The notes under the pieces are model-generated. The model worked only from the letters and a program-made list of their open reading frames with translations. It was not told the origin of the DNA and searched no databases. Positions 29,258-52,347 of a stretch of 64,000 nt of DNA are shown one piece after another. Position numbers and translations under genes: made by a program. Where the stretch lies: assembly GCA_018971685.1 (NCBI GenBank), contig JAGXAG010000001.1:90396-154395 (forward strand), in the 5' to 3' direction. How positions within the stretch are numbered: the first letter of the stretch is position 1; the number at the start of each line of letters is the position of its first letter. Origin of the DNA: Patescibacteria group bacterium (GTDB lineage: Bacteria; Patescibacteriota; Minisyncoccia; Phycocordibacterales; PALSA-1337).

Positions 29258-29392
29258 TTTTATCTCACCTCGCTATTTTCCCTGAATGTTTGGCCTTTTC
29301 GTCAAAGCAACCAAGAAAGTCATTGAGACGATAACTCTGTATATTGTCGGGTATTATTGACGGCTGTAGATAACGGCATTTGCTTTTCAGGT

Positions 29393-29400
29393 GGGGGGGG
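29393..29400. repeat. G8 homopolymer about 75 bp upstream of the surface-protein gene
   Basis: gtgggggggg in the intergenic region. Confidence 0.9.
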
Positions 29401-29474
29401 CGTACTATTAACGCCAGGAATAAAGGGCCAACATCGTAAGGCTCTATTAATAAACTGTAAGTCTATTATTTATC

Positions 29475-31031
29475 ATGAAGAAATCTTTATTTTCATTCGT
29501 TGTTCCATTGGCAGCGGTTTTTGCGTTTGCGGTAACCGTATTCATCCCGGCACCGGCAAGTGCGCAGACCACGCCGATTTGTCCTGCCGGTTACACTTGT
29601 ACGCCCATTAATCCTCAACCCATGAATTGTCCGGCGGGGTATATTTGCACGCCGACAAGCCTGCCTGCGCAAACATATTGCCATACTTTCAATACCAATT
29701 TAGGCATTGGCAGTTCTGGCGACGAAGTAGCCGCTTTGGTAAAAGTTTTGGGTATGGACGGTGAAGCGTTGGGTGTCGGCGGTTACTATAATCAATTTAA
29801 CGAAAATGTCGCATCAGCAGTCTCGTCATTCCAAGAGAAATACTCTTCAGACATTCTTACTCCAGTCGGCTTAACTTATGGCACCGGTTATGTCGGCGCG
29901 TCGACTCGGGCGAAATTGAATCAGTTATATGGATGCGTGACGACCAGCAATCAGAGTTCGCATGTAATATCATATCTTCAAGCGGCGGCCGAAGACAAAA
30001 ATATTATGCATGCCGGAGAACAAACCTGGATTTATGGATCGGGACTTTCTAGCGCTCAATATATAATGATAAACGGTCAAAGTGTGCCGATGTTACACTC
30101 TAGCGATACCTCGGTCTCGTTTTATGCGCCTTCATCGTTGCAAAATGGCACCGCTTCCATTTATGTCGGAGATCAAACTCTTTGGACAAGTAACTCAATT
30201 ACCGTTCAAACTGTAGCAAACGCCGCGAATTCTTCTTGTGCCTCCGGCCAAACATGGAACGGCACGGCGTGCGTAACAACGCAACCTTCAATCACCGTCT
30301 TGAGCCCGAATGGGGGACAGGTTTTCAATTCAGGAGGAACACTTACGGTAAATTGGAGTGCAAACAACATACCTGCGGCAGATTATTATCTATTCGTCTA
30401 CCTAAAGACCAAGCCGGATCAGATACTGGGCGGAACCGTATCCAATACCTATATTCCGCTTATGTTTAGAATCCGAAATGGAACAATGTTGACTTCGTCG
30501 TATACTACCAACATCACTTCGCCAGATACAAAAGGTGGCGGTGTAAGTCCCGGAGCGTATTATATTGAAGTTGATGCCGCTGATGAAAATGGCAATGTAT
30601 ACGCATCCGGAACAAGTAACGGAACCATTACCATTACTCCCCCAACTCCAGTGTCCGCAGTATCGCCCTCGATCACTTCGATTACCCCGACATCCGGCGT
30701 AGCGGGCGGCAAGGTACAGGTGACGCTTTACGGAACGGGTTTCATTCAGGGTACGCAAGTGTCATTCACAGGTCCGGTCGGTCCGTCGGCGACGAATACG
30801 CAAGTGCCGGCGTCGTCGATTTCCGCCGATGGAACCAGCCTGACTGTGGCTATGCCGACAACACTGACACCGGGCACTTACAATGTAAGAGTGATAAATA
30901 CTAACGGCATGAGCGCCAGAGCGGTATTCACGGTGACGCAATCGCCCAGCACGCAAACTTCCAGCATAATGGACGCACTCAGGGCGTATTGTAATAGCGG
31001 AGGCCAGTATTGCGACAGTTCGTGGAGGTAA
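29475..31031 (+). CDS. Secreted/surface protein with Cys-motif repeats, peptidoglycan-binding-like domain and Ig-like (IPT/TIG) domains
   Basis: Signal peptide MKKSLFSFVVPLAAVFAFA; CPAGYTCTP/CPAGYICTP repeats; PG_binding-like segment; TIG-like SITSITPTSGVAGGKVQVTLYGTGF. Confidence 0.6.
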   Translation: MKKSLFSFVVPLAAVFAFAVTVFIPAPASAQTTPICPAGYTCTPINPQPMNCPAGYICTPTSLPAQTYCHTFNTNLGIGSSGDEVAALVKVLGMDGEALGVGGYYNQFNENVASAVSSFQEKYSSDILTPVGLTYGTGYVGASTRAKLNQLYGCVTTSNQSSHVISYLQAAAEDKNIMHAGEQTWIYGSGLSSAQYIMINGQSVPMLHSSDTSVSFYAPSSLQNGTASIYVGDQTLWTSNSITVQTVANAANSSCASGQTWNGTACVTTQPSITVLSPNGGQVFNSGGTLTVNWSANNIPAADYYLFVYLKTKPDQILGGTVSNTYIPLMFRIRNGTMLTSSYTTNITSPDTKGGGVSPGAYYIEVDAADENGNVYASGTSNGTITITPPTPVSAVSPSITSITPTSGVAGGKVQVTLYGTGFIQGTQVSFTGPVGPSATNTQVPASSISADGTSLTVAMPTTLTPGTYNVRVINTNGMSARAVFTVTQSPSTQTSSIMDALRAYCNSGGQYCDSSWR

Positions 31032-31040
31032 AGTAATCGC

Positions 31041-31079
31041 GGTAAAACCACCACGAGGTCCGACCTCGTGGTGGTTTTT
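31041..31079 (+). terminator. Rho-independent terminator
   Basis: aaaaccaccacgaggtc-cga-gacctcgtggtggttttta, a 13-bp perfect stem plus T-tract. Confidence 0.65.
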
Positions 31080-31216
31080 ATGTTGACAAATAAGGTGTTT
31101 GCACATTTTGTACCCAAAGGTGCGAAAAAACGGTAAAAAACGCACCTTAAGGTACGAAATATGCTAATTTTAAGAAAAAATTTATAGAATAATTGAATTG
31201 ATGCTATAATCAACGC

Positions 31217-32737
31217 ATGAAAATATTCAAGCGTTTTCGGTTGAGAACTTATGTAATCGCTGGAATAATAATTCTGGTAATCGTATTCATAGCCGTGGCA
31301 AGCCGCGGATCCTCGGTATCGAACATAGAGTCCGCCGCCGTGACCAGGGGCAATATCGTCGAGCAAGTGAGCGTAACAGGCAAAGTGTCGCCGATCGACA
31401 AAGCCGACCTCGCTTTCGAGAAAAGCGGCGTAATTTCCAAAATCTTTGTGAAAGTCGGCGACAGCGTCAAGGCCGGCGACAAAATCGCGGCGCTGGACAG
31501 CGCCGGCGATCTCGCCAATCTGCAGTCGGCGCAAGCCAAACTCGACGATATGACCAGGACTTTGCGTCCCGAAGAATTGAGCGCCGAGCAGGCTAAAGTT
31601 GACTCGGCGAAAACTGCGCTGGATAACGCCAAAACCGACGCCTTGAACGCCGCGCGCGACGGATATGTCGAGACGGAAGGCGCAGTGGTAAATTATGCCG
31701 ACGCGTTCTTTACCAACCCACAAAGCGCCAATCCGACCATAAAAGTGACGACGCAGTCGCAGACTCAGGAAAATAGCATCGACGCCGAGCGCGTGGCCGT
31801 CACGGACGAATTGGCGGCGTGGCAAGCGGATTTGGCCGCGGCGACTTCGACGGATCGGGCCGCGTATTATCTATCGCGCGCGCACGGCCACCTTTCGATG
31901 ATCAAGAATTTCATGAACGATCTTTCCGGCATCGCGAACTATTTGAGCCCGGGCAATTCCGGGCTGGTGCAATCGGCAATCGATGCATATGTCGGCGCCA
32001 TGAATTCGGCGCAATCGGCGCTGAATCAGGCGATTTCCTCGGTAACAACGGCGGAAGCGGAACTGCAAAACGCTTCCGCGGCATACGACGAGGCGCGCAG
32101 CAATTTCATCCTGAAAAACGCCGGTTCTTCGCCGGAAGCGATCGCGGCACAGCAAGCTTCGGTGGCGTATTACCAGTCCGCTCTGGATAACGATGTCCTG
32201 GTTTCGCCGATCGACGGATTGGTTACGCGCGTCGATCCGAGCGATGGTGAATTTGTCTCGGCCGGGCAATCGGCGTTCTCGGTGCAGAGTTACGGCGATT
32301 ACAAGGTGGAAGCTTATGTGCCGGAAGCGGACATCGCCAAAGTGGCCTTGAATAATACCGCGGCGATCACGCTCGACGCTTACGGTCCGGATGTCAACTT
32401 TCCGGCGGTAGTTACCGCCATTGATCCGGCCGAAACGGTTCTGGAAGGCGTGCCCACTTACAAAGTCACCATGCATTTTACCCAAAAAGACGATCGCGTC
32501 CGCTCGGGCATGACGGCCAATACGGAAATCTTGACTCACGAACACGACAATGTGCTTACGATCCCCACGCGCGCCGTGGTCGACAATAGCGGCCAGAAAT
32601 CCGTGCGCGTCCTCGACGCCGACGGCAAAACTTACCGATCGGTGCCGGTCGTCGCCGGTCTGAAAGGGTCGGACGGCATGACGGAGATTATTTCGGGGCT
32701 TACGGAAGGGCAAAAGGTGGTGACTTATGTGAAGTAA
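31217..32737 (+). CDS. HlyD/MacA-like efflux periplasmic adaptor protein
   Basis: N-terminal TM anchor, biotin-lipoyl-like VKAGDKIAALD, long coiled coil, beta-barrel C-terminus. Confidence 0.8.
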   Translation: MKIFKRFRLRTYVIAGIIILVIVFIAVASRGSSVSNIESAAVTRGNIVEQVSVTGKVSPIDKADLAFEKSGVISKIFVKVGDSVKAGDKIAALDSAGDLANLQSAQAKLDDMTRTLRPEELSAEQAKVDSAKTALDNAKTDALNAARDGYVETEGAVVNYADAFFTNPQSANPTIKVTTQSQTQENSIDAERVAVTDELAAWQADLAAATSTDRAAYYLSRAHGHLSMIKNFMNDLSGIANYLSPGNSGLVQSAIDAYVGAMNSAQSALNQAISSVTTAEAELQNASAAYDEARSNFILKNAGSSPEAIAAQQASVAYYQSALDNDVLVSPIDGLVTRVDPSDGEFVSAGQSAFSVQSYGDYKVEAYVPEADIAKVALNNTAAITLDAYGPDVNFPAVVTAIDPAETVLEGVPTYKVTMHFTQKDDRVRSGMTANTEILTHEHDNVLTIPTRAVVDNSGQKSVRVLDADGKTYRSVPVVAGLKGSDGMTEIISGLTEGQKVVTYVK

Positions 32738-32770
32738 TGGATGACTTGTTTGCGTGCCTGGTGTAAATGC

Positions 32771-33862
32771 ATGAAAGATTTATTCACGCGGTCAAAATCG
32801 AATCCGATCTTGAAACCCAATCCGGATAACGGCTGGGAGTCATTGAAAGTTTATAATCCCGGTGCCATTTTCCATGAAGGCAAATATCATCTCTTTTACC
32901 GCGCGGTCGGCAAAAGCGAGGATGCTCACTCCGCCATAGGCTATGCGACTTCCGTTGACGGCGAACATTTCGATCGATATCCAAAGCCGATACTTGACCG
33001 TGAAGAAGGCAACCCCCTTGAACTCCGCGGCTTGGAAGATCCCAGAATCACGAAAATCGGAGACACATTTTATATGGCATATGCGGCATATGATGGTAAG
33101 TTACCCAGACTTTGCACTGCAGAGTCAAAAGATTTGGCAATCTGGCATAAACAGGGGATTGCGTTTAAAAATTTTGACTTTATAAGTACCGATGGCAGAT
33201 TTTGGGGATTAAAAGGAGAAGGCAAATTTAGAGTGAACGCGGCGACGAAAAAGCAAAAAAATAACTGGAGCAAATCAGGCGCTATCTTTCCAGAAAAGAT
33301 TAACAATAAATACTGGATGATTTTTAATGATCCTACGATTTGGATAGCGAATTCGGACGATGCTATAAATTGGAACCTTGCCGTCAAAGAACCGTTGATT
33401 TACTCACGAACCAGTACTGATTTATTTGACAATTTGTATGTCGAAGTCGGTCCGCCGCCGATTAAAACCAATAGAGGGTGGTTTGTTATGTATCATGGGA
33501 TTAATGAATTACATCAGTATCAATTGGGATTTGTGCTTTTAGAACTTAATAATCCGTTGAAAGTCATCTATCGTTCCAGTGGACCTATATTCGGACCAAG
33601 AGAAGAATATGAACTTGGTGGCATGGTCGATATTGTACCAGGCGTTATGGATTTGATTTGGGAAGGTGATGAACGAAAAATCAAGCTACATCTGAAAGAA
33701 GCGGAGGCGAAAGGTTTCATGCCGCAGGTCGCATTTGTTCCGGCGGCCGTGCTAGTCGATGGTAATCTGCGCTTATTCTACGGCGCCGGCGATCAATACA
33801 TCTGCACCGCAACCGCACGAATCGACGATATTCTAGCGACGATTGATTCGGTTCAGGCTTGA
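32771..33862 (+). CDS. GH130-like glycosidase/phosphorylase (beta-propeller)
   Basis: NPILKP...VYNPGAIFHEGKYHLFYRA...GYATSVDG pattern of GH130/DUF377-type proteins. Confidence 0.55.
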   Translation: MKDLFTRSKSNPILKPNPDNGWESLKVYNPGAIFHEGKYHLFYRAVGKSEDAHSAIGYATSVDGEHFDRYPKPILDREEGNPLELRGLEDPRITKIGDTFYMAYAAYDGKLPRLCTAESKDLAIWHKQGIAFKNFDFISTDGRFWGLKGEGKFRVNAATKKQKNNWSKSGAIFPEKINNKYWMIFNDPTIWIANSDDAINWNLAVKEPLIYSRTSTDLFDNLYVEVGPPPIKTNRGWFVMYHGINELHQYQLGFVLLELNNPLKVIYRSSGPIFGPREEYELGGMVDIVPGVMDLIWEGDERKIKLHLKEAEAKGFMPQVAFVPAAVLVDGNLRLFYGAGDQYICTATARIDDILATIDSVQA

Positions 33863-33887
33863 CTACTAAGCACATGGCGATATAATT

Positions 33888-34103
33888 GTGGTTATGAGTA
33901 AAATAACCATATCAAAAACCGAATATTCAAACCTAAAGAAACAGTCGAAAGCTTATAGAGTTGTCATGGCCAGATTATTCGAGTTGTTGATAAAAGATCC
34001 CGTCAAATCAGTCGTAGACGATTTTCGTAAAATCGGCCTGTATTCTGACGGATTCCTGTCCGATCTGGAAGCGGGATTGCGCAAATCTTCCTACGGTGGT
34101 TAA
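33888..34103 (+). CDS. Putative antitoxin partner of the YoeB-like toxin
   Basis: Small ORF 8 nt upstream of the toxin gene; no strong motif. Confidence 0.3.
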   Translation: MVMSKITISKTEYSNLKKQSKAYRVVMARLFELLIKDPVKSVVDDFRKIGLYSDGFLSDLEAGLRKSSYGG

Positions 34104-34111
34104 TCAACGGC

Positions 34112-34363
34112 ATGAAAATTGAACCTCTTCGGAGAGATCTTCTTGAATATTTGAACAGCCACAAGCTTGCCTCCAAATGGAAGAAGTCCGCAAGATTATT
34201 TGAGACTAATGTGCGCCATCCGTCACTTCATGTGGAATTGCTGGAGCCGAAATGGCACGGCATTTATTCTTTCAGGATTGATAAAAAATATCGCGCCCTG
34301 TTTTTCATAGTAGACGGAGCTTCTGCGGAAGTATTTCAGATTACCAATCATTACAAGAAATAA
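34112..34363 (+). CDS. YoeB/Txe-like (RelE/ParE superfamily) toxin
   Basis: C-terminal LEPKWHGIYSFRIDKKYRALFFIVDG...VFQITNHY resembles YoeB E.LK..G.WSRRI...RLVY..D....I...YHY. Confidence 0.5.
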   Translation: MKIEPLRRDLLEYLNSHKLASKWKKSARLFETNVRHPSLHVELLEPKWHGIYSFRIDKKYRALFFIVDGASAEVFQITNHYKK

Positions 34364-34406: not shown

Positions 34407-35126
34407 ATGGATATTATCGTAGCAAAAGACTTGCGAAAGTCATACAAGGATGGTGAGGCCGAGACGGTCGCTTTGGACGGCGTTTCATTCACGGTGAGGA
34501 AAGGGGAGTTCATGGCGATCATGGGGCCGTCGGGGAGCGGCAAGTCGACACTGTTGCATGTTTTGGGATTACTCGACGAGCCGACGAGCGGGCACTACGG
34601 CTTCAACGGCAAGGATACTTCCGAATATTCGCGTGACGAGTTGGCGGATCTGCGCAATCGGGAAGTTGGCTTCGTTTTCCAGGCGTTCAATCTGCTACCC
34701 AGGACTTCGGTGCTCGAGAATGTCAAACTGCCGCTTTATTATTCAGGCATCGATGAGAGCGAATGGGAAAATCTCGCCAAAAAAGCGGTTGAAGATGTCG
34801 GGCTCGGGCAGCGCATGTATCACGAACAGGCCGAACTTTCCGGCGGCGAAAAACAGAGAGTCGCCATTGCGCGGGCGCTCGTCACCGACCCGGAAGTGAT
34901 ATTTGCCGACGAGCCGACCGGCAACCTCGATTCCAAATCGGGCAAGAATGTCATGTCGATCATTCAGCACCTGAATGAAGAGCACGGCAAAACAATCGTC
35001 CTTATCACCCACGAAACTTCCACGGCCGAACATTCCGAGCGCATTATCCGGCTTCTGGACGGGAAAATTGAGAGCGATGAGAAGGTCGCAAAACGCTTGA
35101 CGGCGGATGATGAGTTTGTGAAATGA
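34407..35126 (+). CDS. ABC transporter ATP-binding protein (MacB/LolD family)
   Basis: Walker [11 protein letters not shown]-loop, signature [15 protein letters not shown], Walker [12 protein letters not shown]. Confidence 0.9.
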
Positions 35127-35197: not shown

Positions 35198-36436
35198 ATG
35201 ACTTACAAACATATATTCAATACGGCGATCAGAGGACTGTCGACCAACCGGTCGCGCTCTTTCCTGACGATTTTCGGCATAGTGATCGGCATCACGGCGA
35301 TCATGCTGGTGGTGTCTTTGGGCGCGGGCGCGCAGGATCTGATACTCGGCCAGGTGCAGGGTCTGGGCACGAATACCATAGCCGTTATTCCCGGCAGGGA
35401 ACCGACCGGACCGTCCGATGTGACCGCCCTATACAGCGACTCGCTCAAGGACAAGGACATAACCGCGCTCACCAATAAAGGCAATGTGCCGTATTTGAAA
35501 AGCATCATGCCCGTGGTCTTCGGCGCCGGCGCTTCGTCTTACGGTTCCAATACCTATCAAGTGACCATATTCGGCGGCACCGATCTCGTCGCCGAAGTAT
35601 TCGATCTGCATCCGTCCGAAGGCCAGTTTTTTGACGCCAGCGACGTGCCGTCCCGTTCAAATGTGGCGGTCATCGGTTCCGATGTCGTCGATCACTTGTT
35701 CGACGGGCAAGATCCTGTAGGGCAAAATATCAAAGTAAAGAGCCGGAACCTGCGCGTGGTGGGCGTATTGCCCAAGTCCGGCGGCGGCACTCTCTTCAAT
35801 TTCGATTCTATGGTCATAATGCCGTATACTACGGCGCAGGATTACATTCTGGGTCAGAAATATTTCAGCCGCATAATCATACAAACCGAGACGGATGCGG
35901 AAGTGGCGGTTACGGCCGAGGACATCAAGCTCACCCTACGGGATTCTCACGGGATCACCGATCCGACCAAGGACGACTTTACGGTCCAAACACAGCAGGA
36001 TCTGGCCAACAGGCTGGGAACGATCACTTCGGCGCTCACCTGGTTCCTGGTGGCGGTGGCATCAATCGCGCTTTTTGTCGGCGGCGTCGGCATCATGAAT
36101 ATCATGCTGGTGGCGGTGACGGAACGCACGCGGGAGATCGGCCTTCGGAAAGCGCTGGGCGCGACGGATCGCGATATTCTGTCGCAATTCTTGCTGGAAG
36201 CGGTCTTGCTCACGGCGATCGGCGGAGCGATCGGGATATTCTTGGGGACGGTGTTAGCGTTCGTGATCTCGGTCGGCCTTTCGAAAGGCCTGGGCGTGAA
36301 CTGGCAGTATGTTTTCCCTTGGGGCGGCGCGCTCTTGGGTTTCGGCGTGTCGGCGCTCGTCGGTCTTGTTTTCGGCGGCTATCCGGCCAGCCAAGCGAGC
36401 AAAAAGAGTCCGATCGAGGCGTTACGGTATGAGTGA
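35198..36436 (+). CDS. ABC transporter permease, FtsX-like (MacB-type)
   Basis: MacB_PCD-like periplasmic domain plus the C-terminal four-TM FtsX domain. Confidence 0.85.
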   Translation: MTYKHIFNTAIRGLSTNRSRSFLTIFGIVIGITAIMLVVSLGAGAQDLILGQVQGLGTNTIAVIPGREPTGPSDVTALYSDSLKDKDITALTNKGNVPYLKSIMPVVFGAGASSYGSNTYQVTIFGGTDLVAEVFDLHPSEGQFFDASDVPSRSNVAVIGSDVVDHLFDGQDPVGQNIKVKSRNLRVVGVLPKSGGGTLFNFDSMVIMPYTTAQDYILGQKYFSRIIIQTETDAEVAVTAEDIKLTLRDSHGITDPTKDDFTVQTQQDLANRLGTITSALTWFLVAVASIALFVGGVGIMNIMLVAVTERTREIGLRKALGATDRDILSQFLLEAVLLTAIGGAIGIFLGTVLAFVISVGLSKGLGVNWQYVFPWGGALLGFGVSALVGLVFGGYPASQASKKSPIEALRYE

Positions 36437-43940: not shown

Positions 43941-43961
43941 ATCCGGCGTTATCGTATCACC

Positions 43962-44339: not shown

Positions 44340-44345
44340 ACTCCC

Positions 44346-45017: not shown

Positions 45018-45019
45018 CC

Positions 45020-45445: not shown

Positions 45446-45466
45446 TTTTTTGCCACAATTAACATC

Positions 45467-45658
45467 ATGAAGACCAAAGAAATAACAAACAGGACGGCTG
45501 CCGATCTGGCGAAAATGCTCGCGGAGAAGCGGGAAGCTTTGCGCGTATTCCGGTTCGGCGGAGCGGGAGCGAAAACAAAAAATGTCAAGGAGGGTGCGGC
45601 GATCAGAAAGGATATCGCCAGGATTTTGACGGTTATTAACGGGAAAAACACAGGTTAA
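45467..45658 (+). CDS. rpmC: 50S ribosomal protein L29
   Basis: Size and position; L29-like helical protein. Confidence 0.8.
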
Positions 45659-45735
45659 CTTTATTTTTAAGCAATACCGGCAACACAACGCCGGATTTGT
45701 AAAAATGTCTGAATTAATGTAATATCGAGAATCAC

Positions 45736-45990
45736 ATGCCAACCGCAGAAACAACCGAAAATGAGATCAGGCGCCAAACATTCACCGGCGTCGTAACTTC
45801 CGACAAGATGAAAGATACGGCGGTTGTGACGATATCCAGATATGTGAAGCATCCGAAATACCATAAGTACCAAATGAAGAAGACCAAATTGCTGGCGCAC
45901 GATCCGGGCAACACCAAGAAAATCGGAGACAAGGCGACGGTGGAGGCGTGCCGGCCGATGTCTAAGAGAAAAGCCTTCAAGATAATATGA
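45736..45990 (+). CDS. rpsQ: 30S ribosomal protein S17
   Basis: GVVTSDKMKDTAVV...HDPGN..K.GD.V.I..CRP.SK.K. Confidence 0.9.
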   Translation: MPTAETTENEIRRQTFTGVVTSDKMKDTAVVTISRYVKHPKYHKYQMKKTKLLAHDPGNTKKIGDKATVEACRPMSKRKAFKII

Positions 45991-46358
45991 TACAACCGCG
46001 CACAATCGTAAATATCGCTGACAATTCCGGCGCCAAGATCGGACGCATATTCAAGGTGCTGGGTGCGACGAGGAAGAGATATGCCGAAATCGGCGACATC
46101 GTTGTTTTGTCGGTACAAAAGGCCGAGCCGCGCAAGACGGTCAAAAAGAAAGATGTTTTGCAAGCAGTCGTGGTCAGGCAATCTAAGCCGACGAGGAGAA
46201 AGGACGGTTCGTATGTCCGCTTTGACGAGAATGCGGTCGTGGTGCTGGAGAAGGGCAAGAAGGAGCCCTTGGCGGGACGCATTTTCGGGCCGATACCCAG
46301 AGAAATCGCGGATAAAGGATTCAAAACGATCGCGTCGAAAGCGGCGGAAATAGTTTAA
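45987..46358 (+). CDS. rplN: 50S ribosomal protein L14
   Basis: MIQPRTIVNIADNSGAK. Confidence 0.95.
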   Translation: MIQPRTIVNIADNSGAKIGRIFKVLGATRKRYAEIGDIVVLSVQKAEPRKTVKKKDVLQAVVVRQSKPTRRKDGSYVRFDENAVVVLEKGKKEPLAGRIFGPIPREIADKGFKTIASKAAEIV

Positions 46359-46362
46359 TACC

Positions 46363-46581
46363 ATGCATATCAAAAAAGGCGACACAGTCAAAATACTTTC
46401 CGGCGATGACAAAGGCAAAACCGCCAAGGTCGCCAAGGCCTTTCCAAAAGAAGGAAGGATTTTGATCGAAGGCGTGAATACGGTGAAGAAGCACGAGAGA
46501 TCGAGACAGCAAGACGGCAAAGGACAAGTGGTGGAGAAAGCAATGCCGATACGGGCTTCAAAGGTTTCAAAGGTTGGTTAA
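46363..46581 (+). CDS. rplX: 50S ribosomal protein L24
   Basis: MHIKKGDTVKILSGDDKGK KOW motif. Confidence 0.9.
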   Translation: MHIKKGDTVKILSGDDKGKTAKVAKAFPKEGRILIEGVNTVKKHERSRQQDGKGQVVEKAMPIRASKVSKVG

Positions 46582-46587
46582 AATCAA

Positions 46588-47130
46588 ATGGCATACAAAA
46601 CCACGCAAGAATTGAATAAGGATTCATTCAAGGCTTTGAAGGAAAAGCTTGCTTTGAAAAATCCGATGCAGGCGCCGAAGCTGGTGAAGGTGGCGGTTTC
46701 GAGCGGCTTCGGTTCCACCAAGGATCAGAAAAAAATCGGACTTATCGCGGACAGGCTGGCGAAGATCACGGGCCAAAAGCCGGCGACGCGCGCGGCGAAA
46801 AAGGCGATCGCGACCTTCAAGACCAGGACCGGCGATCCGTTGGCGTATCAAGTCACTTTGCGAGGCAAACAGATGCATGAATTCTTGGACCGGCTGATCC
46901 ACATCGCTCTGCCGCGCACCAAAGATTTCCGCGGCCTGCCGAGGACGGCGATCGACGCGATGGGCAATTATACTATCGGCGTGAAAGAGCACACTATTTT
47001 CCCGGAGACGGCGGATGAAGATCTGAAAGATGTCTTCGGCCTGGGGATCACGATCGTCACGACTTCGCGCGACAAAAAGGCGACTGAGGCGTTCCTGGAG
47101 CATTTGGGATTGCCGCTGAAAAGGGAGTAA
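46588..47130 (+). CDS. rplE: 50S ribosomal protein L5
   Basis: L5 family; position after L24. Confidence 0.9.
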   Translation: MAYKTTQELNKDSFKALKEKLALKNPMQAPKLVKVAVSSGFGSTKDQKKIGLIADRLAKITGQKPATRAAKKAIATFKTRTGDPLAYQVTLRGKQMHEFLDRLIHIALPRTKDFRGLPRTAIDAMGNYTIGVKEHTIFPETADEDLKDVFGLGITIVTTSRDKKATEAFLEHLGLPLKRE

Positions 47131-47209: not shown

Positions 47210-49198
47210 ATGACGCAAAAGGAGGCATTGGAAATATTGAAGACCGGCGCGAATGTTTTCTTGACAGGCGCGGCCGGAAGCGGCAAGACGCACATCCTGC
47301 GGGAATATTTGGCGTGTTTGAAAGAGCGTAAAATCCCGGTCGGAGTGACGGCTTCGACCGGCATTGCCGCCACGCATATGGGCGGAGTCACCATACATTC
47401 ATGGTCCGGAATAGGAGTCAAAGACCAATTGAGTGATTGGGACATAGACGAAATATCGCAGCGGGAAAAATTATCGGCCAGAATAAACGCCGCCAAAGTA
47501 CTGGTGATCGACGAAATCTCGATGCTGCACCACTATCAGCTGGACATGGTGAACCGCGTGCTCAAGTCTGTGCGCAATTCGCCGGAGCCGTTCGGCGGAT
47601 TGCAGGCGGTCGTCTGCGGGGACTTCTTCCAACTGCCGCCGGTCTCGCGCCGGCCGAGATCGTTCGACGCGGACGGGATGCTCTTTATCGACGACGATTA
47701 TGATGCGGACGGCAAAGCCAGGTTCGCGTACCATTCGCGGGCGTGGCGGGAGGCGGAGTTTGCGGTGTGCTATTTGGAGGAAAATTACAGGCAAAGCGAC
47801 GAACAATATTTGCAGGTGTTGAACGCGATCAGGAATTCCGCGGTCACCGATGAAATCGTTGAAATCTTGAAGAGTCGATTCAAGGCGGCAATTCCGCCGT
47901 CTGCTCTGCCAAATAAAGCGGTTGCCGAAGCGTCCCGCGGCACAAGTTTTTTGAGTTCCGCGACTCCGCCGCGAAGCAATCCGTCGCCGCGTTTCCCAAC
48001 CGACAAGTCCGTGTATGTCCGAGAGGGCTTGTCGGTTGCGGAAACGCCGACGGTTGCGAGCGGCATTCGCGGAACTCAAAAAACTTGTGCCGCGGGACGC
48101 GAATCTGTTACCAGATTGTATTCTCATAACGCCAATGTCGACGCGGAGAACGAGCGGGAGCTGGCGAAATTGAAAACGCCTTTGCAAAAATACGAAATGA
48201 CCGGGCGCGGCAAGAGACATTTGGTCGAAGCGCTCAAGAAGAGCTGTCTGGCGCCGGAAGTGTTGAAATTGAAAGATGGCGCCAAAGTGATGTTCGTGAA
48301 GAATAATTTCGAAAAAGGATTCGTGAACGGCACTACCGGGATCGTGAAGAAATGCACGCCGTTCGAAATCGTGGTGGCGACCGATAAAGGGCATGTGCGG
48401 GTCGAAACGGAGTCGTGGCACATCGAAGACAACGGCAAAATCCTGGCGGAAATCGAGCAGTACCCTCTGCGGCTGGCTTGGGCGATAACGATACACAAAA
48501 GCCAAGGCATGTCGCTGGATGCGGCGGAAATCGATCTGTCTCAGTCGTTCGAAAAAGGCATGGGCTATGTGGCGCTTTCCAGGGTGAAAACTTTGGATGG
48601 TCTATCGCTTTCCGGCCTGAATAAAACCGCGCTTGAGATACACGGAGAGGCGTTGGAGTACGACAAATCATTCAGGGAACAATCGGACAGAGCGGCGGCG
48701 GAATTGGCGGTTATGCCGGAAGAGGAATTGAAGAGAAGGCAAACAGGATTCTTGGGGCCGGAGCCGGCGCGCACAAATATGACCAGAAAATCCCACGCCT
48801 CGCGAAGCGAGGTACCCCCTTTTTCAAAGGGGGATTTCGCGCGGCGAGACCAGGAAACTGGTTCTGCGAATGGGTCCAGAGAACCGAAAATACCGACGAC
48901 GGAACGAACAAGGCGATTATTGGATGCCGGAATGACGGTGGGAGAAGCGGCGGCGGCCAGGGGGTTGAAGGCGGAGACTATCATCAACCATATCGGACTG
49001 ATCAAGCGCGCGGATGATTCTTGGGACATTTCGAGGTTCAGATCAATCATACCGGCCGACAGACTGGAGAAGATCATTGAAGCGTTCAACGGATCGAAAC
49101 CGGGCGCGGACGGCTTGCCGCCGCTCACTCCGGTAAAACAAAGATTGGGCGCGGGGTATTCGTATGAGGAGATAAAAATCGCGAGGCTGTTCCTGTGA
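47210..49198 (+). CDS. Pif1/RecD-family ATP-dependent DNA helicase
   Basis: Walker A FLTGAAGSGKTHIL, VLVIDEISML, GDFFQLPPV, TIHKSQGMSLD motifs; C-terminal HTH-like region. Confidence 0.8.
   Translation: MTQKEALEILKTGANVFLTGAAGSGKTHILREYLACLKERKIPVGVTASTGIAATHMGGVTIHSWSGIGVKDQLSDWDIDEISQREKLSARINAAKVLVIDEISMLHHYQLDMVNRVLKSVRNSPEPFGGLQAVVCGDFFQLPPVSRRPRSFDADGMLFIDDDYDADGKARFAYHSRAWREAEFAVCYLEENYRQSDEQYLQVLNAIRNSAVTDEIVEILKSRFKAAIPPSALPNKAVAEASRGTSFLSSATPPRSNPSPRFPTDKSVYVREGLSVAETPTVASGIRGTQKTCAAGRESVTRLYSHNANVDAENERELAKLKTPLQKYEMTGRGKRHLVEALKKSCLAPEVLKLKDGAKVMFVKNNFEKGFVNGTTGIVKKCTPFEIVVATDKGHVRVETESWHIEDNGKILAEIEQYPLRLAWAITIHKSQGMSLDAAEIDLSQSFEKGMGYVALSRVKTLDGLSLSGLNKTALEIHGEALEYDKSFREQSDRAAAELAVMPEEELKRRQTGFLGPEPARTNMTRKSHASRSEVPPFSKGDFARRDQETGSANGSREPKIPTTERTRRLLDAGMTVGEAAAARGLKAETIINHIGLIKRADDSWDISRFRSIIPADRLEKIIEAFNGSKPGADGLPPLTPVKQRLGAGYSYEEIKIARLFL
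47931..48099. repeat. Nested palindromic element inserted in-frame in the helicase CDS
   Basis: 32-nt perfect inverted arms (cgtcccgcggcacaagttttttgagttccgcg ... cgcggaactcaaaaaacttgtgccgcgggacg) flank about 105 nt that themselves hold imperfect inverted repeats. Confidence 0.85.
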
Positions 49199-49246: not shown

Positions 49247-49843
49247 ATGACAAAAACAAACATGGCAAACAAAAATAAAGAAATATTGAAGATCGCAATA
49301 ATTATAGGTAGCACCAGGCCGGGCAGATTTGGCGACAAGCCGGCCAAGTGGATATACGAAGAGGCGAAAAGAACGGACGGGGTAGAGGCGGAATTGCTGG
49401 ATTTGCGGGATTATCCGATGCCTTTTTACGCCGAAGACCATTCGTTCAGCATGAATCCGGCGGTTTCCGACCAAACGGCGGAGAAATGGCAGGCGAAAAT
49501 CGGCGCGGCGGACGCTTTTGTCATCGTCACGCCGGAATACAACCACGGCCCCTCGGCAGTCTTGAAGAACGCGCTCGACTATGCGTACCGCGAATGGAAC
49601 GACAAGCCGGTTGCTTTCGTCGCTTATGGCAGTGTGGGCGGCGCCCGCGCGGTGGAACAATTGCGGCTGGTCGCGATCGAACTGCAAATGGCGCCGATCC
49701 GAAACGCGGTGCACATTCCGGCGCCGTGGTTCTTGGTTGACGGCAAAGGCGATCTGAAGCCGAATGCCCTGGATCCATTCAAGGACGCGGCAAAAAATAT
49801 GCTGGAACAACTGGTAAGATGGGGGAGGGTGATGAAAAGATAG
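49247..49843 (+). CDS. NAD(P)H-dependent FMN reductase (flavodoxin-like, SsuE/YieF family)
   Basis: IAIIIGSTRPGRF... and VIVTPEYNHGPSAVLKNALDY motifs. Confidence 0.8.
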   Translation: MTKTNMANKNKEILKIAIIIGSTRPGRFGDKPAKWIYEEAKRTDGVEAELLDLRDYPMPFYAEDHSFSMNPAVSDQTAEKWQAKIGAADAFVIVTPEYNHGPSAVLKNALDYAYREWNDKPVAFVAYGSVGGARAVEQLRLVAIELQMAPIRNAVHIPAPWFLVDGKGDLKPNALDPFKDAAKNMLEQLVRWGRVMKR

Positions 49844-50214
49844 ATTCAGAGCTAGATAAAGGGTGGGTACAAATTGTACATACCCTTAGCATAAACACTG
49901 CAGGAGGGACGCTGAAAGTGCTTTGTGCCAATACCGAGGGCATATTCCGCATCATTCAATCTATTCCATCGCCCAAGGCTGAGCCGTTCAAACGCTGGCT
50001 GGCGAGGGTTGGCTACGAGCGCATTCAGGAGATTGAAGACCCGGAGCTGGCCACCAAGCGCACCCGCGCCCTTTATAAAGCCAAGGGCTATGATGATGCC
50101 TGGATCGAGAAGCGCATGCGCGGTATTGCCGTTCGCGAAAAATTGACCGATGAGTGGCAGAAACGGGGGATTAGACTCTCAGGATTCGCGACCTATTGTC
50201 GTAAATTCAGTTGA
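49819..50214 (+). pseudogene. Remnant of a Bro-N/DinD-like (phage antirepressor-type) protein lacking its N-terminus
   Basis: SPKAEPFKRWLA resembles the Bro-N KPEAKxFKRWV motif; the first ~60 aa of the domain are missing; overlaps the end of the FMN reductase gene. Confidence 0.35.
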
Positions 50215-50277
50215 GTCCGCAATCCACAAGGAATTGCGGTGTGCAGATTTTATTTTCGGTATCTACACAGTTGACCG

Positions 50278-50508
50278 TTAGGTTTTGATAAAACCCTGAA
50301 AATCTTCGGCTGGAACGGCGCCCCATCCTCTGGGAACATTGTCGACGATGCTCACAGCGATAATGGAACTCTTTCCCAGCTTTCCAATTTCCGTTCGGAC
50401 CTTCTCAACAAAAGCGTCGGCTTCTTCGGTACCCTTGAGAGGACCGTAAAAGCTTCGACTCGTGCTAGAAGTTCCGACACCAGTTAGGATAAGTGCGTAC
50501 TTTTCCAT
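50278..50508 (-). CDS. Hypothetical 76-aa protein, second gene of an unknown two-gene operon
   Basis: ATG 1 nt after the upstream gene's TAA; no recognisable domain. Confidence 0.35.
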   Translation of the reverse strand: MEKYALILTGVGTSSTSRSFYGPLKGTEEADAFVEKVRTEIGKLGKSSIIAVSIVDNVPRGWGAVPAEDFQGFIKT

Positions 50509-50509
50509 G

Positions 50510-51676
50510 TTAACAAACTTCGCTAAGCGCTCCCTTGGGTAACGACCCCTGTGGCAACCTGTCCTTGCGAACTATGCACGGTCTTACCTGCACGATTTTC
50601 GGTGCGGACGGATTGTCTCCTGTGCCAGGCGCTCGCCGCCAGTGACCTCGACGGAAGTGTGCCGATATTTCGACCAGTGTTGAACGCGCACTTGAAGAAA
50701 TCACTCTGAGAGCTTCTTTCTCATCAGTTGATAACTTGTGACAGAAATCAACCGAGCAAACGAGCGCTTCCTTTGTGATAACAGTCGCGTCTTTGGTCGG
50801 ATTCGGCACTCTCTGCCAATCACTTGCATGGCTTGACTCCGAGGGCAGGGTTTTGAGATATAGGCATAAGCCCACGACAAGACGCTTAATCATTTCGAAC
50901 TCAGCGTGCTCATCGAAGTTTTCGATGCGTGTCTCGTTTGTGACCTTGTCGAAATACTCGATACCATCACTCTGCTCCTCCGTAACTTTCCCGAATGTGT
51001 ACGGGATGTACGAAACGGCGGCGAATGTATCGGCTTTCTGGTCACTTGCCTTGGCGAGTAGTTCACTCGCAGTACCCCAACGGCGTTTACTGATCGCTTC
51101 CCGAATCCGCTGACGCACATACGGGGAGATTGCAGGAATTTCGCAGTAGCCTGGCGCAAATGCACGAATGCACATGGTATCTTCCTTGCACGCAATCCCC
51201 GTCTCTCGCGAGAATAGGATGCAGTCAAGTTGATGTCCACGAGAATCGCGGATCGGCGTCTCCAGGGTGATAGCGAATGAATCGAATGGCCAAGGCACCT
51301 CATCCCAACAAATGTCAGAAAGAGAAGTGGCCATCAGAATGTGGGCGAGATCGGACGACAGATGGAACACTCGCCGGGAATACTTGGTCCAAGCAGTCAG
51401 ACTGCAGGGTAAGAATTCCAGAAAGTGACCGGCTGTCGCCACGGCCTTGCGGACCTCGTCAACTCCGACATACTTGCTGTAGTCAAACTCTTCCGAGTGG
51501 CATTTGAGCAAGTACTTGCGGAAATTGAAGGCGTTAACCAGAGGACCTTGTTCGGGTAGAACAAGGTCGGGATGTTGACCGCTTGCCCTGCTTAGGATTG
51601 ACTCCGTTTGCAGGTGAAAGCAGTAGTTTTCCCAACGGCGCAGAGCGCCTTCGAGGTGCAGAATGTTCGTTTTCAT
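50510..51676 (-). CDS. Hypothetical 388-aa protein (unknown function; possible defence/accessory gene)
   Basis: Long ORF with no recognised motifs; Cys-rich central region; sits between RhuM/Bro-N-like remnants. Confidence 0.4.
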   Translation of the reverse strand: MKTNILHLEGALRRWENYCFHLQTESILSRASGQHPDLVLPEQGPLVNAFNFRKYLLKCHSEEFDYSKYVGVDEVRKAVATAGHFLEFLPCSLTAWTKYSRRVFHLSSDLAHILMATSLSDICWDEVPWPFDSFAITLETPIRDSRGHQLDCILFSRETGIACKEDTMCIRAFAPGYCEIPAISPYVRQRIREAISKRRWGTASELLAKASDQKADTFAAVSYIPYTFGKVTEEQSDGIEYFDKVTNETRIENFDEHAEFEMIKRLVVGLCLYLKTLPSESSHASDWQRVPNPTKDATVITKEALVCSVDFCHKLSTDEKEALRVISSSARSTLVEISAHFRRGHWRRAPGTGDNPSAPKIVQVRPCIVRKDRLPQGSLPKGALSEVC

Positions 51677-51980
51677 GCTGTTTCAATGTTCTGTTCAGTG
51701 ACTTCCGAAAATTTACCTCTTGTAAGTATAGCATACTACGACATAAAAATCAAGAGCTGTCTAACAAGCTGCGGAATTATACAAGGAATTATAGAGATGG
51801 GAAAATAAATCCGGAAAATGACTGAAGCAGAACATTTTCGGCGGGTTTGGTGTAGAATATTCGCATGAATGACGAAAATGGCGAAAAAATTGATGAAAGT
51901 ATTCAGAGCGCGCCTGATAAGATGAAAAATAAATAAACTATGAAAAAGAAGCATATACAAAAGAATGTGGTGATATTCTA

Positions 51981-52154
51981 ATGGACAGAGAATTGGATGC
52001 CAATTCAGTATGTGCAAATTTTGCACATACTGCCGAGGACGGAAAAACATACCAAGTCAGATTTTATAATCTCGATGTTATCTTGTCTGTCGGGTACAGA
52101 ACCAATTCAGTACGGGCAGTAGAATTTAGGAAATGGACAATGTCCGATTACTGA
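51981..52154 (+). pseudogene. Fragment of a RhuM-family (Virulence_RhuM) gene
   Basis: DGKTYQVRFYNLDVILSVGYRTNSVRAVEFRKW matches the RhuM core (YNLDaIIsVGYRV.S..g.qFR.WAT); an upstream in-frame TAA and a premature stop after 57 aa. Confidence 0.5.
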
Positions 52155-52347
52155 AGTCCGACCTCAGTAATCCAAAAGAAAAACGATTAACTAACCGCTA
52201 TTGACGAAAACCCCCAAGGTTTGCTAGTATCAAAATACCTCAAAAAGGCAGTTTGCGAGGAAATGATTGGAAGCAGGCCGCGCGGCGGGAACGAAAAGCC
52301 GGCGGGGAGCTAACCAATCAAATTTTAATTGAGGAAATAAACAATTC

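Follow-up and report, generated by a model that had tools for sequence, protein, structure and literature searches.

A patescibacterial ribosomal-protein gene cluster as a probable chain of separately promoted units holding inherited and recently added genes

Background

The canonical str-S10-spc-alpha supercluster of ribosomal-protein genes (PMC8046335, PMC6735719) is divided in E. coli and Bacillus at the str/S10 boundary, at the S10/spc boundary between S17 and L14, and at the spc/alpha boundary. A survey of 204 genomes, in the part of PMC8046335 considered here, found that operons stayed intact in 65% of rearrangements and that spc and alpha were never separated. The paper also describes a two-step route of break-up, in which a small insertion between operons is followed by full disconnection.

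The locus described here lies in a 64-kb stretch of DNA (the window, analysed over its whole length) from an uncultured member of the Patescibacteria (CPR). The canonical gene order is kept inside each of its ribosomal-protein pieces, but the breakpoints in its clade, fusA/tuf, L3/L4, L2/S19 and L5/S14, coincide with none of the E. coli and Bacillus boundaries. The window also differs from the genomes in that part of the survey in having no alpha genes after map. Its relatives show both stages of the two-step route as described there, with a few genes inserted between units in some cases and full separation in others.

The str-S10-spc supercluster of this clade (Paceibacteria/Taylorbacteria-like) is probably a chain of short units rather than one long operon, an inherited scaffold to which recent layers have been added in the window. 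The units would be rpsL-rpsG-fusA, tuf-rpsJ-rplC, rplD-rplW-rplB, rpsS through rplE, and rpsN through map-ndk, each started by a conserved extended -10 promoter of the sigma-70 type, with a short hairpin leader added at rpsS and a structured leader RNA at rpsN. Because the downstream genes would be independent of read-through, the four clade breakpoints could act as inter-operon spacers, which over evolutionary time may take in other genes and serve as sites of rearrangement.

Gene map of the cluster

Pfam scans of the window place the 5' part of the str operon, rpsL-rpsG-fusA, at 15619-18779 on the plus strand (Ribosom_S12_S23, Ribosomal_S7 and EF-G domains; rpsL at 15619-16038, fusA at 16614-18779 and rpsG between them) and tuf, the gene for EF-Tu, at 24078-25295 (+). 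Three further plus-strand pieces follow: rpsJ-rplC-rplD-rplW-rplB at 26073-29257 (module A; rpsJ 26073-26444, rplB 28403-29257), rpsS-rplV-rpsC-rplP-rpmC-rpsQ-rplN-rplX-rplE at 43596-47130 (module B), and rpsN-rpsH-rplF-rplR-rpsE-rplO-secY-adk-map and then ndk at 52348-58591 (module C; map 57025-57792). An earlier note on this DNA described about 14 kb of non-ribosomal DNA between rpsJ-rplCDWB and rpsS-rplE and another block of about 5.2 kb before rpsN-map. The map bears this out, with distances of 14,338 bp from rplB to rpsS and 5,217 bp from rplE to rpsN. That note was also correct that infA-rpmJ-rpsM-rpsK-rpsD-rpoA-rplQ are missing after map; Pfam finds none of them anywhere in the 64 kb. 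Downstream of map lie ndk, an ORF for a small membrane protein, a gene for a beta-CASP RNase and, after these on the minus strand, rplT and infC. The missing alpha operon is a shared trait, map and ndk being adjacent in locus L096 as well. Module C lacks a Pfam match to rpmD, the gene for L30, an absence that is typical of CPR bacteria.

Two further breaks, at fusA/tuf and tuf/rpsJ, had been overlooked. According to Pfam, the three genes between fusA and tuf (18792-23956, mixed strands) encode a 979-aa PG-binding/Pel-like protein (-), a protein O-mannosyltransferase (PMT, -) and a GT2 glycosyltransferase (+), and the last two are found at the equivalent site in L093. Between tuf and rpsJ lies a 175-aa ORF (25394-25921, +) that is specific to the window and has no Pfam or PHROG match; the tuf-rpsJ gap in relatives is 10-100 bp.

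Layout in related genomes

The window was compared with 21 related loci, selected by similarity and contig size (given here as L with three digits). A MacA-MacB exporter follows rplB in eight genomes including the window, often with a minus-strand histidine kinase alongside. MacAB genes occupy the L2/S19 junction in the window, L002, L005, L008, L009, L010 and L012. The order MacA-MacB-MacB is found 3' of rplB in L005, L008, L010 and L098, and 5' of rpsS in L002, L009 and L012; L098 has kept the rplB-MacAB linkage with rpsS located elsewhere. In L101 the cassette sits between rplC and rplD and is followed by an extended -10 motif like that in the rplC-rplD gap of the window, and in L102 a 75%-identical MacAB lies away from any ribosomal-protein gene. 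The kinase alone follows rplB in L095 and L099, one other gene occupies the junction in L004 and L097, and the junction is intact in L092, L093, L094, L096 and L100. Of 14 genomes, only L012 and L096 have an intact L5/S14 junction; in the other 12 it is broken or its two sides are completely separated. Between one and six unrelated genes occupy it in the window, L006, L008, L092, L093 and L094; rpsN is not within 5 kb or more of rplE in L004, L009, L010, L095 and L100; and the rpsN-map module of L097 has been relocated upstream of tuf.

The relatives with the window-like interrupted layout have L2 proteins 67-87% identical to that of the window. The earlier note had taken the interruptions to be recent insertions into a contiguous operon, and the synteny comparison contradicts this: because relatives carry the same interrupted layout, the core interruptions are lineage traits. 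MacAB at L2/S19 falls in three separate parts of neighbor-joining trees (read for topology only), which fits ancestral presence with losses and repeated relocation alike. Permease identity (73-87%) follows ribosomal-protein identity across the relatives, arguing that the cassette has probably been inherited vertically.

Promoter motifs and terminators

A strict extended -10 motif of the sigma-70 type, TTGACt-N-TGnTAnnAT (a consensus that may not be CPR's own), matches four times on the two strands of the window, compared to 0.29 matches expected. All four matches are intergenic and on the plus strand, upstream of tuf (TTGACA-N-TGCTAACAT, 23953-23980), rplD (in the rplC-rplD gap, 27136-27164), rpsS (TTGACC-17-(TG)TTAATAT, 43528-43556) and rpsN (TTGACG-18-(TG)CTAGTAT, 52201-52230). 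When up to 19 loci were scanned within 160 nt upstream of each cluster gene, the strict motif preceded rpsS in 17 of 18 loci, rpsN in six of nine (relaxed, eight of nine), tuf in eight of 14 (relaxed, 12 of 14) and rplD in three of 15; it preceded none of the 27 remaining cluster genes. Relatives with intact junctions (L093, L094, L096) also carry it. Judging from sequence, these motifs are presumably active promoters.

The earlier note had proposed putative promoters before rpsS and rpsN, and the sites are there and conserved in relatives. Its further suggestion, that re-initiation of transcription allows the insertions to be tolerated, fits the conserved motifs at these two genes, but the motifs are also present at intact junctions and probably predate the insertions. 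Re-initiation would thus be a pre-existing, clade-wide feature that makes the junctions permissive and not an adaptation following insertion, and the breakpoints would coincide with junctions that already bore promoters. Predicted terminators are found immediately 3' of rplB in L010 (20-bp stem and U-run) and L008. In the window neither rplB nor rplE is followed by a clear intrinsic terminator, and so transcription could read through into the surface-protein gene and the helicase gene described below.

The L2/S19 block

Monoderm bacteria have MacAB-type (type VII ABC) tripartite exporters, for example YknXYZ of Bacillus, and MacB of E. coli is an ATPase-permease fusion. The window cassette shares three components with MacAB/YknXYZ: a membrane-fusion protein of the HlyD type, an ATPase of the ABC family and a permease that combines MacB periplasmic core and FtsX domains. 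Precomputed Pfam annotation includes a BSH_YknX match. It differs from E. coli MacB in that ATPase and permease are separate polypeptides and there is no outer-membrane partner, and from known MacAB exporters in lying within a ribosomal-protein cluster and being split by other genes. The MacA-like protein gene is at 31217-32737 (+; HlyD_D23/HlyD_3), with orthologs 52-64% identical in seven relatives. A TGCTATAAT -10 element is immediately upstream; in L005 and L098, as in the window, a TGnTAnAAT element lies ahead of macA, and L010 has only TATAAT without the TG. The ATPase (34407-35126, +) and the MacB_PCD/FtsX permease (35198-36436, +) follow, and the permease is as conserved among relatives as L2 and S3. 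The kinase gene (42683-43522, -; HisKA, HATPase_c) predicts one N-terminal transmembrane helix and no sensor domain, and has no adjacent response regulator. Its orthologs, 43-54% identical, have the matching position and strand in L002, L005, L009, L095 and L099.

The remaining contents listed in the earlier note were likewise found, except that the GH130 gene and toxin-antitoxin (TA) pair interrupt the MacAB cassette itself, falling between its MacA and ATPase genes. This insert (32741-34363, +) consists of a GH130 phosphorylase-family gene (32741-33862) and, at 33888-34363, an ORF of 71 aa together with one for a HigB/RelE-like toxin (weak in Pfam, RelE-like in PHROGs). GC falls to 0.415 here. 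The insert is window-specific; L002 has GH125 at the equivalent site and L005, L010 and L098 have nothing. Directly after rplB is TIG518, a gene for a 518-aa TIG/IPT-domain surface protein, at 29475-31078 (+; Pfam TIG, inverted repeat I2, fold), with its coding region at 29475-31031 and a predicted terminator formed by a perfect 17-nt palindrome at 31044-31078. No ortholog occurs at the equivalent site in relatives, where L002 has a 1026-aa PKD protein.

Between permease and kinase lies an island (36553-42326, +; Pfam, TR/VR repeat D1) comprising a diversity-generating retroelement (DGR) flanked by genes for unknown proteins of 339 and 650 aa. The target gene is at 37624-38457 with its VR at 38272-38460, bAvd starts at 38487, the TR is at 38997-39185 and the RT at 39193-40377, all on the plus strand. 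The DGR is genuine, TR adenines accounting for 19 of the 24 TR/VR mismatches. GC is 0.42-0.45 at 39-41 kb. The island is absent from the equivalent site in all relatives surveyed, and L002 shows a 51-bp gap there. A 64-nt direct repeat (D2) flanks it on both sides: the left copy (36373-36436, +) is the last 64 nt of the permease gene including the stop codon, and the right copy (42333-42396, +) is 94% identical. The copies differ at four clustered, synonymous positions, which points less to a replicative target-site duplication than to recombination with a divergent copy. The 5.9-kb island thus resembles att-type islands that duplicate the 3' end of a gene and leave the coding sequence intact. 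In contrast to those islands, the target is a protein gene and not a tRNA gene, and Pfam and PHROGs detected no integrase or recombinase in the island.

The L5/S14 block

Pfam and PHROGs confirmed the contents reported after rplE, although of the RhuM/Bro-N remnants only a Bro-N fragment was confirmed. The confirmed contents are a Pif1-family helicase with a C-terminal HTH_40 (47210-49198, +), whose gene contains a 171-nt palindromic element (inverted repeat I1, 47930-48100); an FMN reductase (49247-49843, +); an ORF for a truncated Bro-N/phrog_15286 protein (49819-50214, +); and three ORFs of unknown function, 76, 388 and 104 aa long (50278-52050, -). A Pif1 ortholog is also directly 3' of rplE in L097; the other genes have no counterpart in the relatives' loci. 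The view that the intervening DNA is recent therefore holds for the DGR island, TIG518, the GH130/TA insert, the FMN reductase, the Bro-N fragment and the three ORFs, but not for MacAB and the kinase, and Pif1 is shared with L097.

In the order of events that we infer, the exporter, with its own promoter, would have been an early occupant, often with the sensor-less membrane kinase on the opposite strand, and located at L2/S19 in the window's lineage. The recent layers would be TIG518, the GH130/TA insertion into the cassette, the DGR island (recombined into the permease 3' end to give the 64-nt duplication), the 175-aa ORF at tuf/rpsJ and several genes after rplE-Pif1.

Alternative explanations

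It is extremely improbable that the window is a chimeric contig joining ribosomal-protein fragments to unrelated DNA, because four assemblies share its layout. The sequence is a metagenome-assembled contig and the 64-nt repeat could in principle mislead an assembler. However, four NCBI assemblies have identical L2 and permease proteins, 7 accession numbers (genes) apart; four contigs of 50-200 kb share the window's neighbours; and base composition is even across the junctions. The junction types also recur in independent assemblies, rplB-macA in L005, L010 and L098, permease-kinase-rpsS in L002, L005 and L009, and rplE-Pif1 in L097, and the independent relatives sharing junctions include contigs of 0.5-0.7 Mb. 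The reading of the earlier note, a contiguous S10/spc operon recently interrupted twice and tolerated through promoter re-initiation, is rather unlikely. The promoter-like sites before rpsS and rpsN, the flanking duplication and lower GC of the DGR island and the genes without counterparts agree with it, but for the core blocks it is largely refuted by the syntenic MacAB and kinase orthologs in relatives whose L2 is as little as 67% identical, the frequency of broken L5/S14 junctions, the Pif1 gene of L097 and the motifs at intact junctions.

Selection might instead keep MacAB and the kinase in the cluster, through co-expression, dosage, or a role involving ribosome-targeting compounds or secreted peptides. 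Ten loci have a permease of 73% identity or higher, and in nine of them the cassette is inside the ribosomal-protein cluster. More distant homologs, at 63% or below, never adjoin ribosomal-protein genes, and the permease matches the ribosomal proteins in conservation. The different junction in L101 and the persistence beside rplB in L098 point in the same direction. We consider such coupling quite unlikely, given the displaced cassette of L102 and the five relatives with an intact L2/S19 junction and no cassette; the linkage may be mere inheritance of an old arrangement. Co-transcription would not be required in any case, because the cassette has its own predicted promoter and putative terminators follow rplB in L010 and L008. 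The chain of separately promoted units remains the probable explanation.

Leader RNAs

Two of the predicted units have conserved leaders. The rpsS leader (43563-43590, +) is a hairpin, AAGCUC..GGGCUU, with a U-tract, found in 13 loci and absent from L093, L094, L096 and L100. The rpsN leader (52263-52331, +; alignment and RNAalifold) has the form GAUUGG-A-AGC-[variable hairpin]-GCU-AA-CCAAUC followed by a U-tract, with a fold z-score of -3.68. Its internal loop, an A opposite AA between two helices, is presumably unlike the S8 site in E. coli spc mRNA. The stem/internal-loop/stem form, the location in the 5' UTR of a ribosomal-protein operon (first genes S14 and S8) and a compensatory change are features shared with ribosomal-protein leaders, including that S8 site and the Rfam r-leaders (PMC7247131), and the rpsN leader may well be regulatory. 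PMC7247131 describes no leader for S14, S8 or S19, and the element matches no Rfam 15 family. The compensatory change, UU/AA to CC/GG, retains the structure. The element is upstream of rpsN in eight of nine genomes checked, and matches to its covariance model in 791 kb were solely upstream of rpsN.

The ribosomal protein cluster and its gaps

Few bacterial gene arrangements are as well conserved as the S10-spc block, and synteny of 16 S10-spc proteins is routinely assumed in the binning and phylogenetic placement of CPR genomes. In Pfam scans of all long ORFs of the window, the genes rpsJ-rplCDWB-rpsS-rplV-rpsC-rplP-rpmC-rpsQ-rplNXE-rpsN-rpsH-rplF-rplR-rpsE-rplO-secY-adk-map were found in canonical order, all on the plus strand, with rpmD (the L30 gene) as the sole absentee. 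What fails is contiguity through short spacers. The genes form a first group rpsJ-rplC-rplD-rplW-rplB (ending at 29257), a second from rpsS through rplE (43596-47130) and a third, rpsN-rpsH-rplF-rplR-rpsE-rplO-secY-adk-map (52348-57792), so that rplB and rpsS (the L2|S19 junction) are 14,338 bp apart and rplE and rpsN (L5|S14) 5,217 bp apart; spacers of 777 bp and 5.3 kb separate tuf from rpsJ and fusA from tuf, respectively. The earlier note had described interruptions at L2|S19 and L5|S14 and their gene content, and the Pfam map agrees with it on both.

The first gap contains, in order, a 518-aa TIG-domain surface protein (TIG518), a MacA-like fusion protein, a GH130 enzyme, a 71-aa ORF, a weak HigB/RelE-like ORF, a MacB-type ATPase and permease, a 339-aa ORF, a diversity-generating retroelement (DGR), a 650-aa ORF and, on the minus strand, a histidine kinase. 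A perfect 17-nt palindromic terminator is predicted 3' of the TIG-domain gene (31044-31078). In the second gap, Pif1 is followed by an FMN reductase gene, a truncated Bro-N fragment and, on the minus strand, three ORFs of unknown function; the Bro-N fragment is the confirmed part of the RhuM/Bro-N remnants proposed earlier. Overlooked earlier were three cell-envelope glycosylation genes between fusA and tuf (18792-23956) and a 175-aa ORF between tuf and rpsJ. PHROGs matches among the gap ORFs of both blocks were confined to the Bro-N fragment, the RelE-like toxin and the Pif1/Dda-like helicase, and the search for phage or integrase signals in the otherwise unassigned ORFs of these blocks added nothing to the three.

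The alpha operon genes infA-rpmJ-rpsM-rpsK-rpsD-rpoA-rplQ were correctly described as missing after map, where ndk, a small membrane ORF, a beta-CASP RNase and then rplT and infC on the minus strand are found instead; no member of the operon was detected by Pfam anywhere in the 64-kb window. An Rfam search of the whole window found no family reaching its gathering score, tRNA included.

The junctions in related loci

Window proteins were mapped by tblastn onto 21 related loci, comprising 9 GTDB species representatives reached through S3 (L002-L010), a metagenome contig found by permease search (L012) and 11 further contigs obtained by exact look-up of L2 or permease homologs (L092-L102). Their L2 proteins are 67-87% identical to that of the window, and their source names are Patescibacteria, Paceibacterota and Taylorbacteria, with Saccharibacteria in some third-party records. 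The clade is evidently large: permeases with at least 75% identity to that of the window occur in more than 120 protein clusters. Permease homologs at or below 63% identity in metagenomes, which served as a negative control, were never near ribosomal protein genes. Literature searches found no CPR-specific report of a split ribosomal protein operon.

At L2|S19, genes for MacA, the MacB ATPase and the MacB permease (the MacAB cassette) follow rplB in L005, L008, L010 and L098, the last of which has its rpsS cluster elsewhere and MacAB still with rplB; the cassette lies 5' of rpsS in L002, L009 and L012. In L101 it is located between rplC and rplD (L3|L4), and three other genes, one of them for a kinase, occupy L2|S19. 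The kinase alone is kept after rplB in L095 and L099, a single unrelated minus-strand gene fills the junction in L004 and L097, and non-ribosomal genes precede rpsS at the contig start in L003 and L006, with rplB out of view. The junction ranges from one to three inserted genes (L004, L095, L097, L101) to full separation (L098, L099), and it is intact, with spacers of 50-223 bp, in L092, L093, L094, L096 and L100. An orthologous kinase (43-54% identical), on the minus strand, adjoins the cassette in L002, L005 and L009. The spacers flanking the cassette in L010 are just 78 and 68 bp, and L102 carries a 75%-identical cassette with no ribosomal protein gene nearby.

The L5|S14 junction is intact in L012 and L096. 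One or two genes interrupt it in five relatives: two genes of unknown function in L006, a class II aminoacyl-tRNA synthetase in L008, two minus-strand genes in L092 and one ORF6N gene in L093 and L094. In L004, L009, L010, L095 and L100, rpsN is not within 5 kb or more of rplE. L100 counts as separated, as does L097, where the rpsN..map module is located upstream of tuf. The sequence 3' of rplE encodes a two-component pair in L004 and an AAA protein plus another DGR in L095. Some details of the window recur: a Pif1 ortholog (64-65% identical) follows rplE in L097 too, PMT and GT2 genes lie between fusA and tuf in L093 as well, and map adjoins ndk also in L096. The ORF6N (KilA-N/Bro-related) genes that fill the L5|S14 gap are on the minus strand (L093 14434-14970; L094 14651-15184), and the corresponding gap of the window also contains a Bro-related sequence, the truncated Bro-N fragment at 49819-50214.

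The insertions had been presumed to be recent. This does not hold for the core of both gaps, because relatives show the interrupted layout as a lineage trait; it does hold for the younger layers of the window described below. In neighbor-joining trees, read qualitatively and without bootstrap values, MacAB at L2|S19 falls in three separate parts. This pattern is compatible with ancestral presence followed by loss or relocation, with more than one move to this junction, and with an ancestral layout like that of the intact relatives followed by three entries of MacAB.

A predicted promoter motif at the junctions

The putative promoter proposed earlier for rpsS reads TTGACC-17-TAATAT with a TG extension. 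The motif TTGAC-N14-16-TGnTAnnnT was sought in the whole window on both strands, giving four strict matches in 64 kb compared with 0.29 expected from shuffles. All four are intergenic and on the plus strand, and each lies upstream of a cluster gene: tuf (at 98 nt), rplD (33 nt), rpsS (40 nt) and rpsN (118 nt). When the motif was scored up to 160 nt upstream of each cluster gene across the relatives, rpsS had it in 17 of 18 loci (also 17/18 with a relaxed -35), rpsN in 6 of 9 (8/9 relaxed), tuf in 8 of 14 (12/14) and rplD in 3 of 15 (3/15). The remaining 27 cluster genes gave no strict match, and the relaxed form added rpsL (2/3), rpmC (4/18) and one case each for fusA, rpsJ and macA. Putative promoters before both rpsS and rpsN, as the earlier note had proposed, are consistent with this distribution. 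The distribution also indicates that the junctions carrying a conserved predicted promoter on their downstream side are exactly those interrupted or broken somewhere in the clade. The motif precedes rpsS also in L093, L094 and L096, where L2 and S19 are adjacent, and in L101 it sits 3' of the MacAB cassette, before rplD. Upstream of rpsS and rplD the spacer of the motif is conserved beyond the hexamers (GGCTCTGTTA).

A strong intrinsic terminator follows rplB in L010 (20-bp stem and U-run) and a clear one in L008; none was clearly seen after rplB or rplE in the window. A TGnTAnAAT element lies 5' of macA in the window, L005 and L098, and L010 has TATAAT without the TG extension. The TGCTATAAT element upstream of macA in the window (31181-31220) ends about 9 nt before the ATG, so that transcripts of macA may have little or no leader.

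A proposed reorganization of the cluster

The best-supported explanation, based on gene order and predicted signals, is that in this clade the str-S10-spc supercluster has been reorganized as a series of short units, each with a promoter of its own. The spacers before tuf, rplD, rpsS and rpsN would behave as inter-operon regions (their promoter activity being predicted), which would gather other genes and serve as rearrangement breakpoints. The window would then consist of an inherited scaffold with several younger insertions on top. In Gammaproteobacteria and Bacilli, according to Brandis 2021 (PMC8046335), such clusters have come apart by a two-step route, with a few inserted genes first and full separation later; most rearrangements in that work spared the operons as such, and spc and alpha were never separated. 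Both stages of the route, as it is outlined there, are visible among the present relatives as small insertions and complete separations of the same units. Compared with E. coli, the breakpoints here fall inside what are single operons there, and the alpha genes are elsewhere.

A chimeric assembly could in principle place foreign blocks between ribosomal protein genes. This is contradicted by four NCBI assemblies in which the L2 and MacB permease proteins are identical and each time separated by seven accession numbers, and by the same neighborhood in four 50-200 kb contigs; in addition, each junction type recurs in the independent assemblies of relatives. An assembly artefact is thus unlikely. 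The synteny survey contradicts the idea of a purely recent double insertion. A third alternative is that history is not the cause, and that the MacA-MacB exporter and the sensor-less membrane kinase form a ribosome-linked module of this clade kept in the cluster by selection. The expression of such a module might follow ribosome synthesis, or its task might be to sense and export a ribosome-targeting compound or a secreted peptide, and the leaders before rpsN and rpsS (see below) would be new autoregulatory RNAs replacing the classical S10/spc controls. In its favor, the cassette is within the cluster in 9 of the 10 loci whose permease is at least 73% identical, even on changing junction, and the permease is conserved as strongly as the ribosomal proteins. 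Against it, the cassette has its own predicted promoter, L102 carries it at another location, and five relatives have none in the cluster. We regard this combined proposal as improbable, and old linkage is the simpler account of the association.

Rather than a new kind of system, the proposed reorganization into separately promoted units represents a variant, particular to this clade, of an evolutionary process already known. The survey shows a different architecture in a sizeable Patescibacteria clade, with recurrent breakpoints at L2|S19, L5|S14, L3|L4 and fusA|tuf, and it offers a natural test of whether transcriptional independence, and not gene function, decides where conserved clusters can break. 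It also implies that contiguity of ribosomal protein genes is unsafe as a marker of assembly quality in these lineages. The by-products of the analysis are two candidate regulatory RNAs, of which the rpsN one is a candidate new ribosomal protein leader, an island with clean insertion boundaries, and a strongly conserved predicted exporter.

The MacAB cassette and the histidine kinase

By Pfam, the permease has a MacB periplasmic core (PF12704, E=2.5e-43) and an FtsX C-terminal domain (PF02687, E=3.1e-22), the ATPase matches ABC_tran (E=1.3e-34), and the fusion protein matches HlyD_D23/HlyD_3. The window cassette therefore has the genes of a MacAB-type tripartite ABC exporter, with export itself predicted. 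The three genes are adjacent in L005, L010, L098, L101 and L102. Permease identity to the window is 73-87% across relatives and parallels that of S3 and L2, as expected if the cassette has been vertically inherited.

The histidine kinase (minus strand, 42683-43522) has one N-terminal transmembrane helix; it lacks an extracellular sensor domain as well as a response regulator gene beside it, and it adjoins a MacB-type ABC transporter in several relatives. This arrangement is reminiscent of the transporter-dependent intramembrane-sensing kinases of the Bce type. In the long-read MAG L009, macA is broken into two reading frames and so is the permease gene (3129-4629 and 7001-8240), reflecting either sequencing frameshifts or pseudogenization, and the ATPase gene is separated from the permease gene by DUF3800 and AAA genes.

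Candidate leader RNAs

A conserved element, GAUUGG-A-AGC-(variable hairpin)-GCU-AA-CCAAUC followed by a U-tract, lies between the predicted promoter and the start codon of rpsN in 8 of the 9 genomes checked, L006 being too diverged to align. It consists of an outer helix (GAUUGG/CCAAUC), an A versus AA internal loop, an inner helix (AGC/GCU), the variable hairpin and the U-tract. The sites are at 52263-52331 in the window, 15180-15240 in L008, 8789-8841 in L012, 17051-17110 in L092, 15160-15212 in L093, 15415-15474 in L094, 14641-14692 in L096 and 525-584 in L097. The alignment, which has only these 8 sequences, gives 12 consensus pairs; within it the outer helix shows a double compensatory change (UU/AA to CC/GG) in L008 and one G-U in L093. 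The fold z-score of the window sequence is -3.68. A covariance model run over 791 kb of loci matched only upstream of rpsN, recovering its 8 training sequences plus one weak match (E = 0.016) in L096, and no new members beyond the training set were found in those loci, which leaves the evidence from covariation slim. No Rfam leader family had a gathering-score match to the element in the window, and E-value searches of 52050-52400 were at chance level.

By analogy with known ribosomal protein leaders, the ligand of the RNA is probably one of the operon's own products, with S8 and S14 as obvious candidates. That it mimics the S8 site is a hypothesis; its loop geometry presumably differs from that of the helix-21 S8 site of E. 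coli. The main survey of ribosomal protein leaders gives none for S14, S8 or S19 (PMC7247131).

At rpsS, a hairpin AAGCUC-loop-GRGCUU with a U-run lies directly 3' of the -10 element in 13 loci (window 43563-43590 and 12 relatives); the four relatives whose intact L2-S19 spacers are shortest do not have it. Single-sequence folds of it are weak (4-9 bp), and Rfam E-value searches of the region gave chance-level matches only. It could be an attenuator or a 5' stabilizer.

The DGR island and other younger layers

The DGR of the window is bona fide. RVT_1 and bAvd matches (Pfam) lie beside a target gene with a Fib_succ_major C-terminal domain, and the template and variable repeats (TR and VR) form a 189-nt pair, 87% identical, in which 19 of the 24 mismatches are A-to-N at TR adenines. 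The element is part of a 5.9-kb segment comprising the 339-aa ORF, the DGR and the 650-aa ORF, which is bracketed by a 64-nt direct repeat. One copy (36373-36436) coincides with the final 64 nt of the permease gene and takes in its stop codon, and the other (42333-42396) lies just after the 650-aa ORF; they are 94% identical, and the four differences are clustered and synonymous. L002, the closest relative, lacks the segment and has a spacer of 51 bp instead. The boundaries mark this island as the footprint of a discrete recombination event at the permease 3' end, of Campbell type or site-specific. A site-specific integrative island has flanking target-derived repeats, as seen here, and an encoded integrase or recombinase, which was not found in the island; its 339-aa and 650-aa ORFs have no Pfam or PHROG match. 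A different DGR is present a few kb 3' of rplE in L095 (19618-20855), with bAvd on the minus strand and a reverse transcriptase (RT) 34% identical to that of the window, and DGRs therefore recur near the ribosomal protein cluster in this clade.

The macA-ATPase spacer is also variable. GH130 (32741-33862) and the toxin-antitoxin (TA) pair split the cassette in the window, a GH125 alpha-mannosidase (4902-6293) is found there in L002 and an unrelated 338-aa ORF (452-1468) in L012, and the spacer is empty of extra genes in six other relatives. Mannose-related genes recur in the cluster, counting these spacer occupants together with PMT and GT2 between fusA and tuf. Searches of the relatives' loci by tblastn gave no counterpart for TIG518, the 175-aa ORF, the FMN reductase, the Bro-N fragment or any of the three minus-strand ORFs. 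GC content dips to 0.42 at the TA pair and at the RT.

The Pif1 gene (47210-49198) contains, at 47930-48100 and in frame, a pair of perfect 34-nt inverted repeats separated by 103 nt, together with a second, nested inverted repeat. The L097 ortholog has no equivalent of residues 226-300 of the window protein, and the segment resembles an in-frame insertion of a small palindromic (MITE-like) element.
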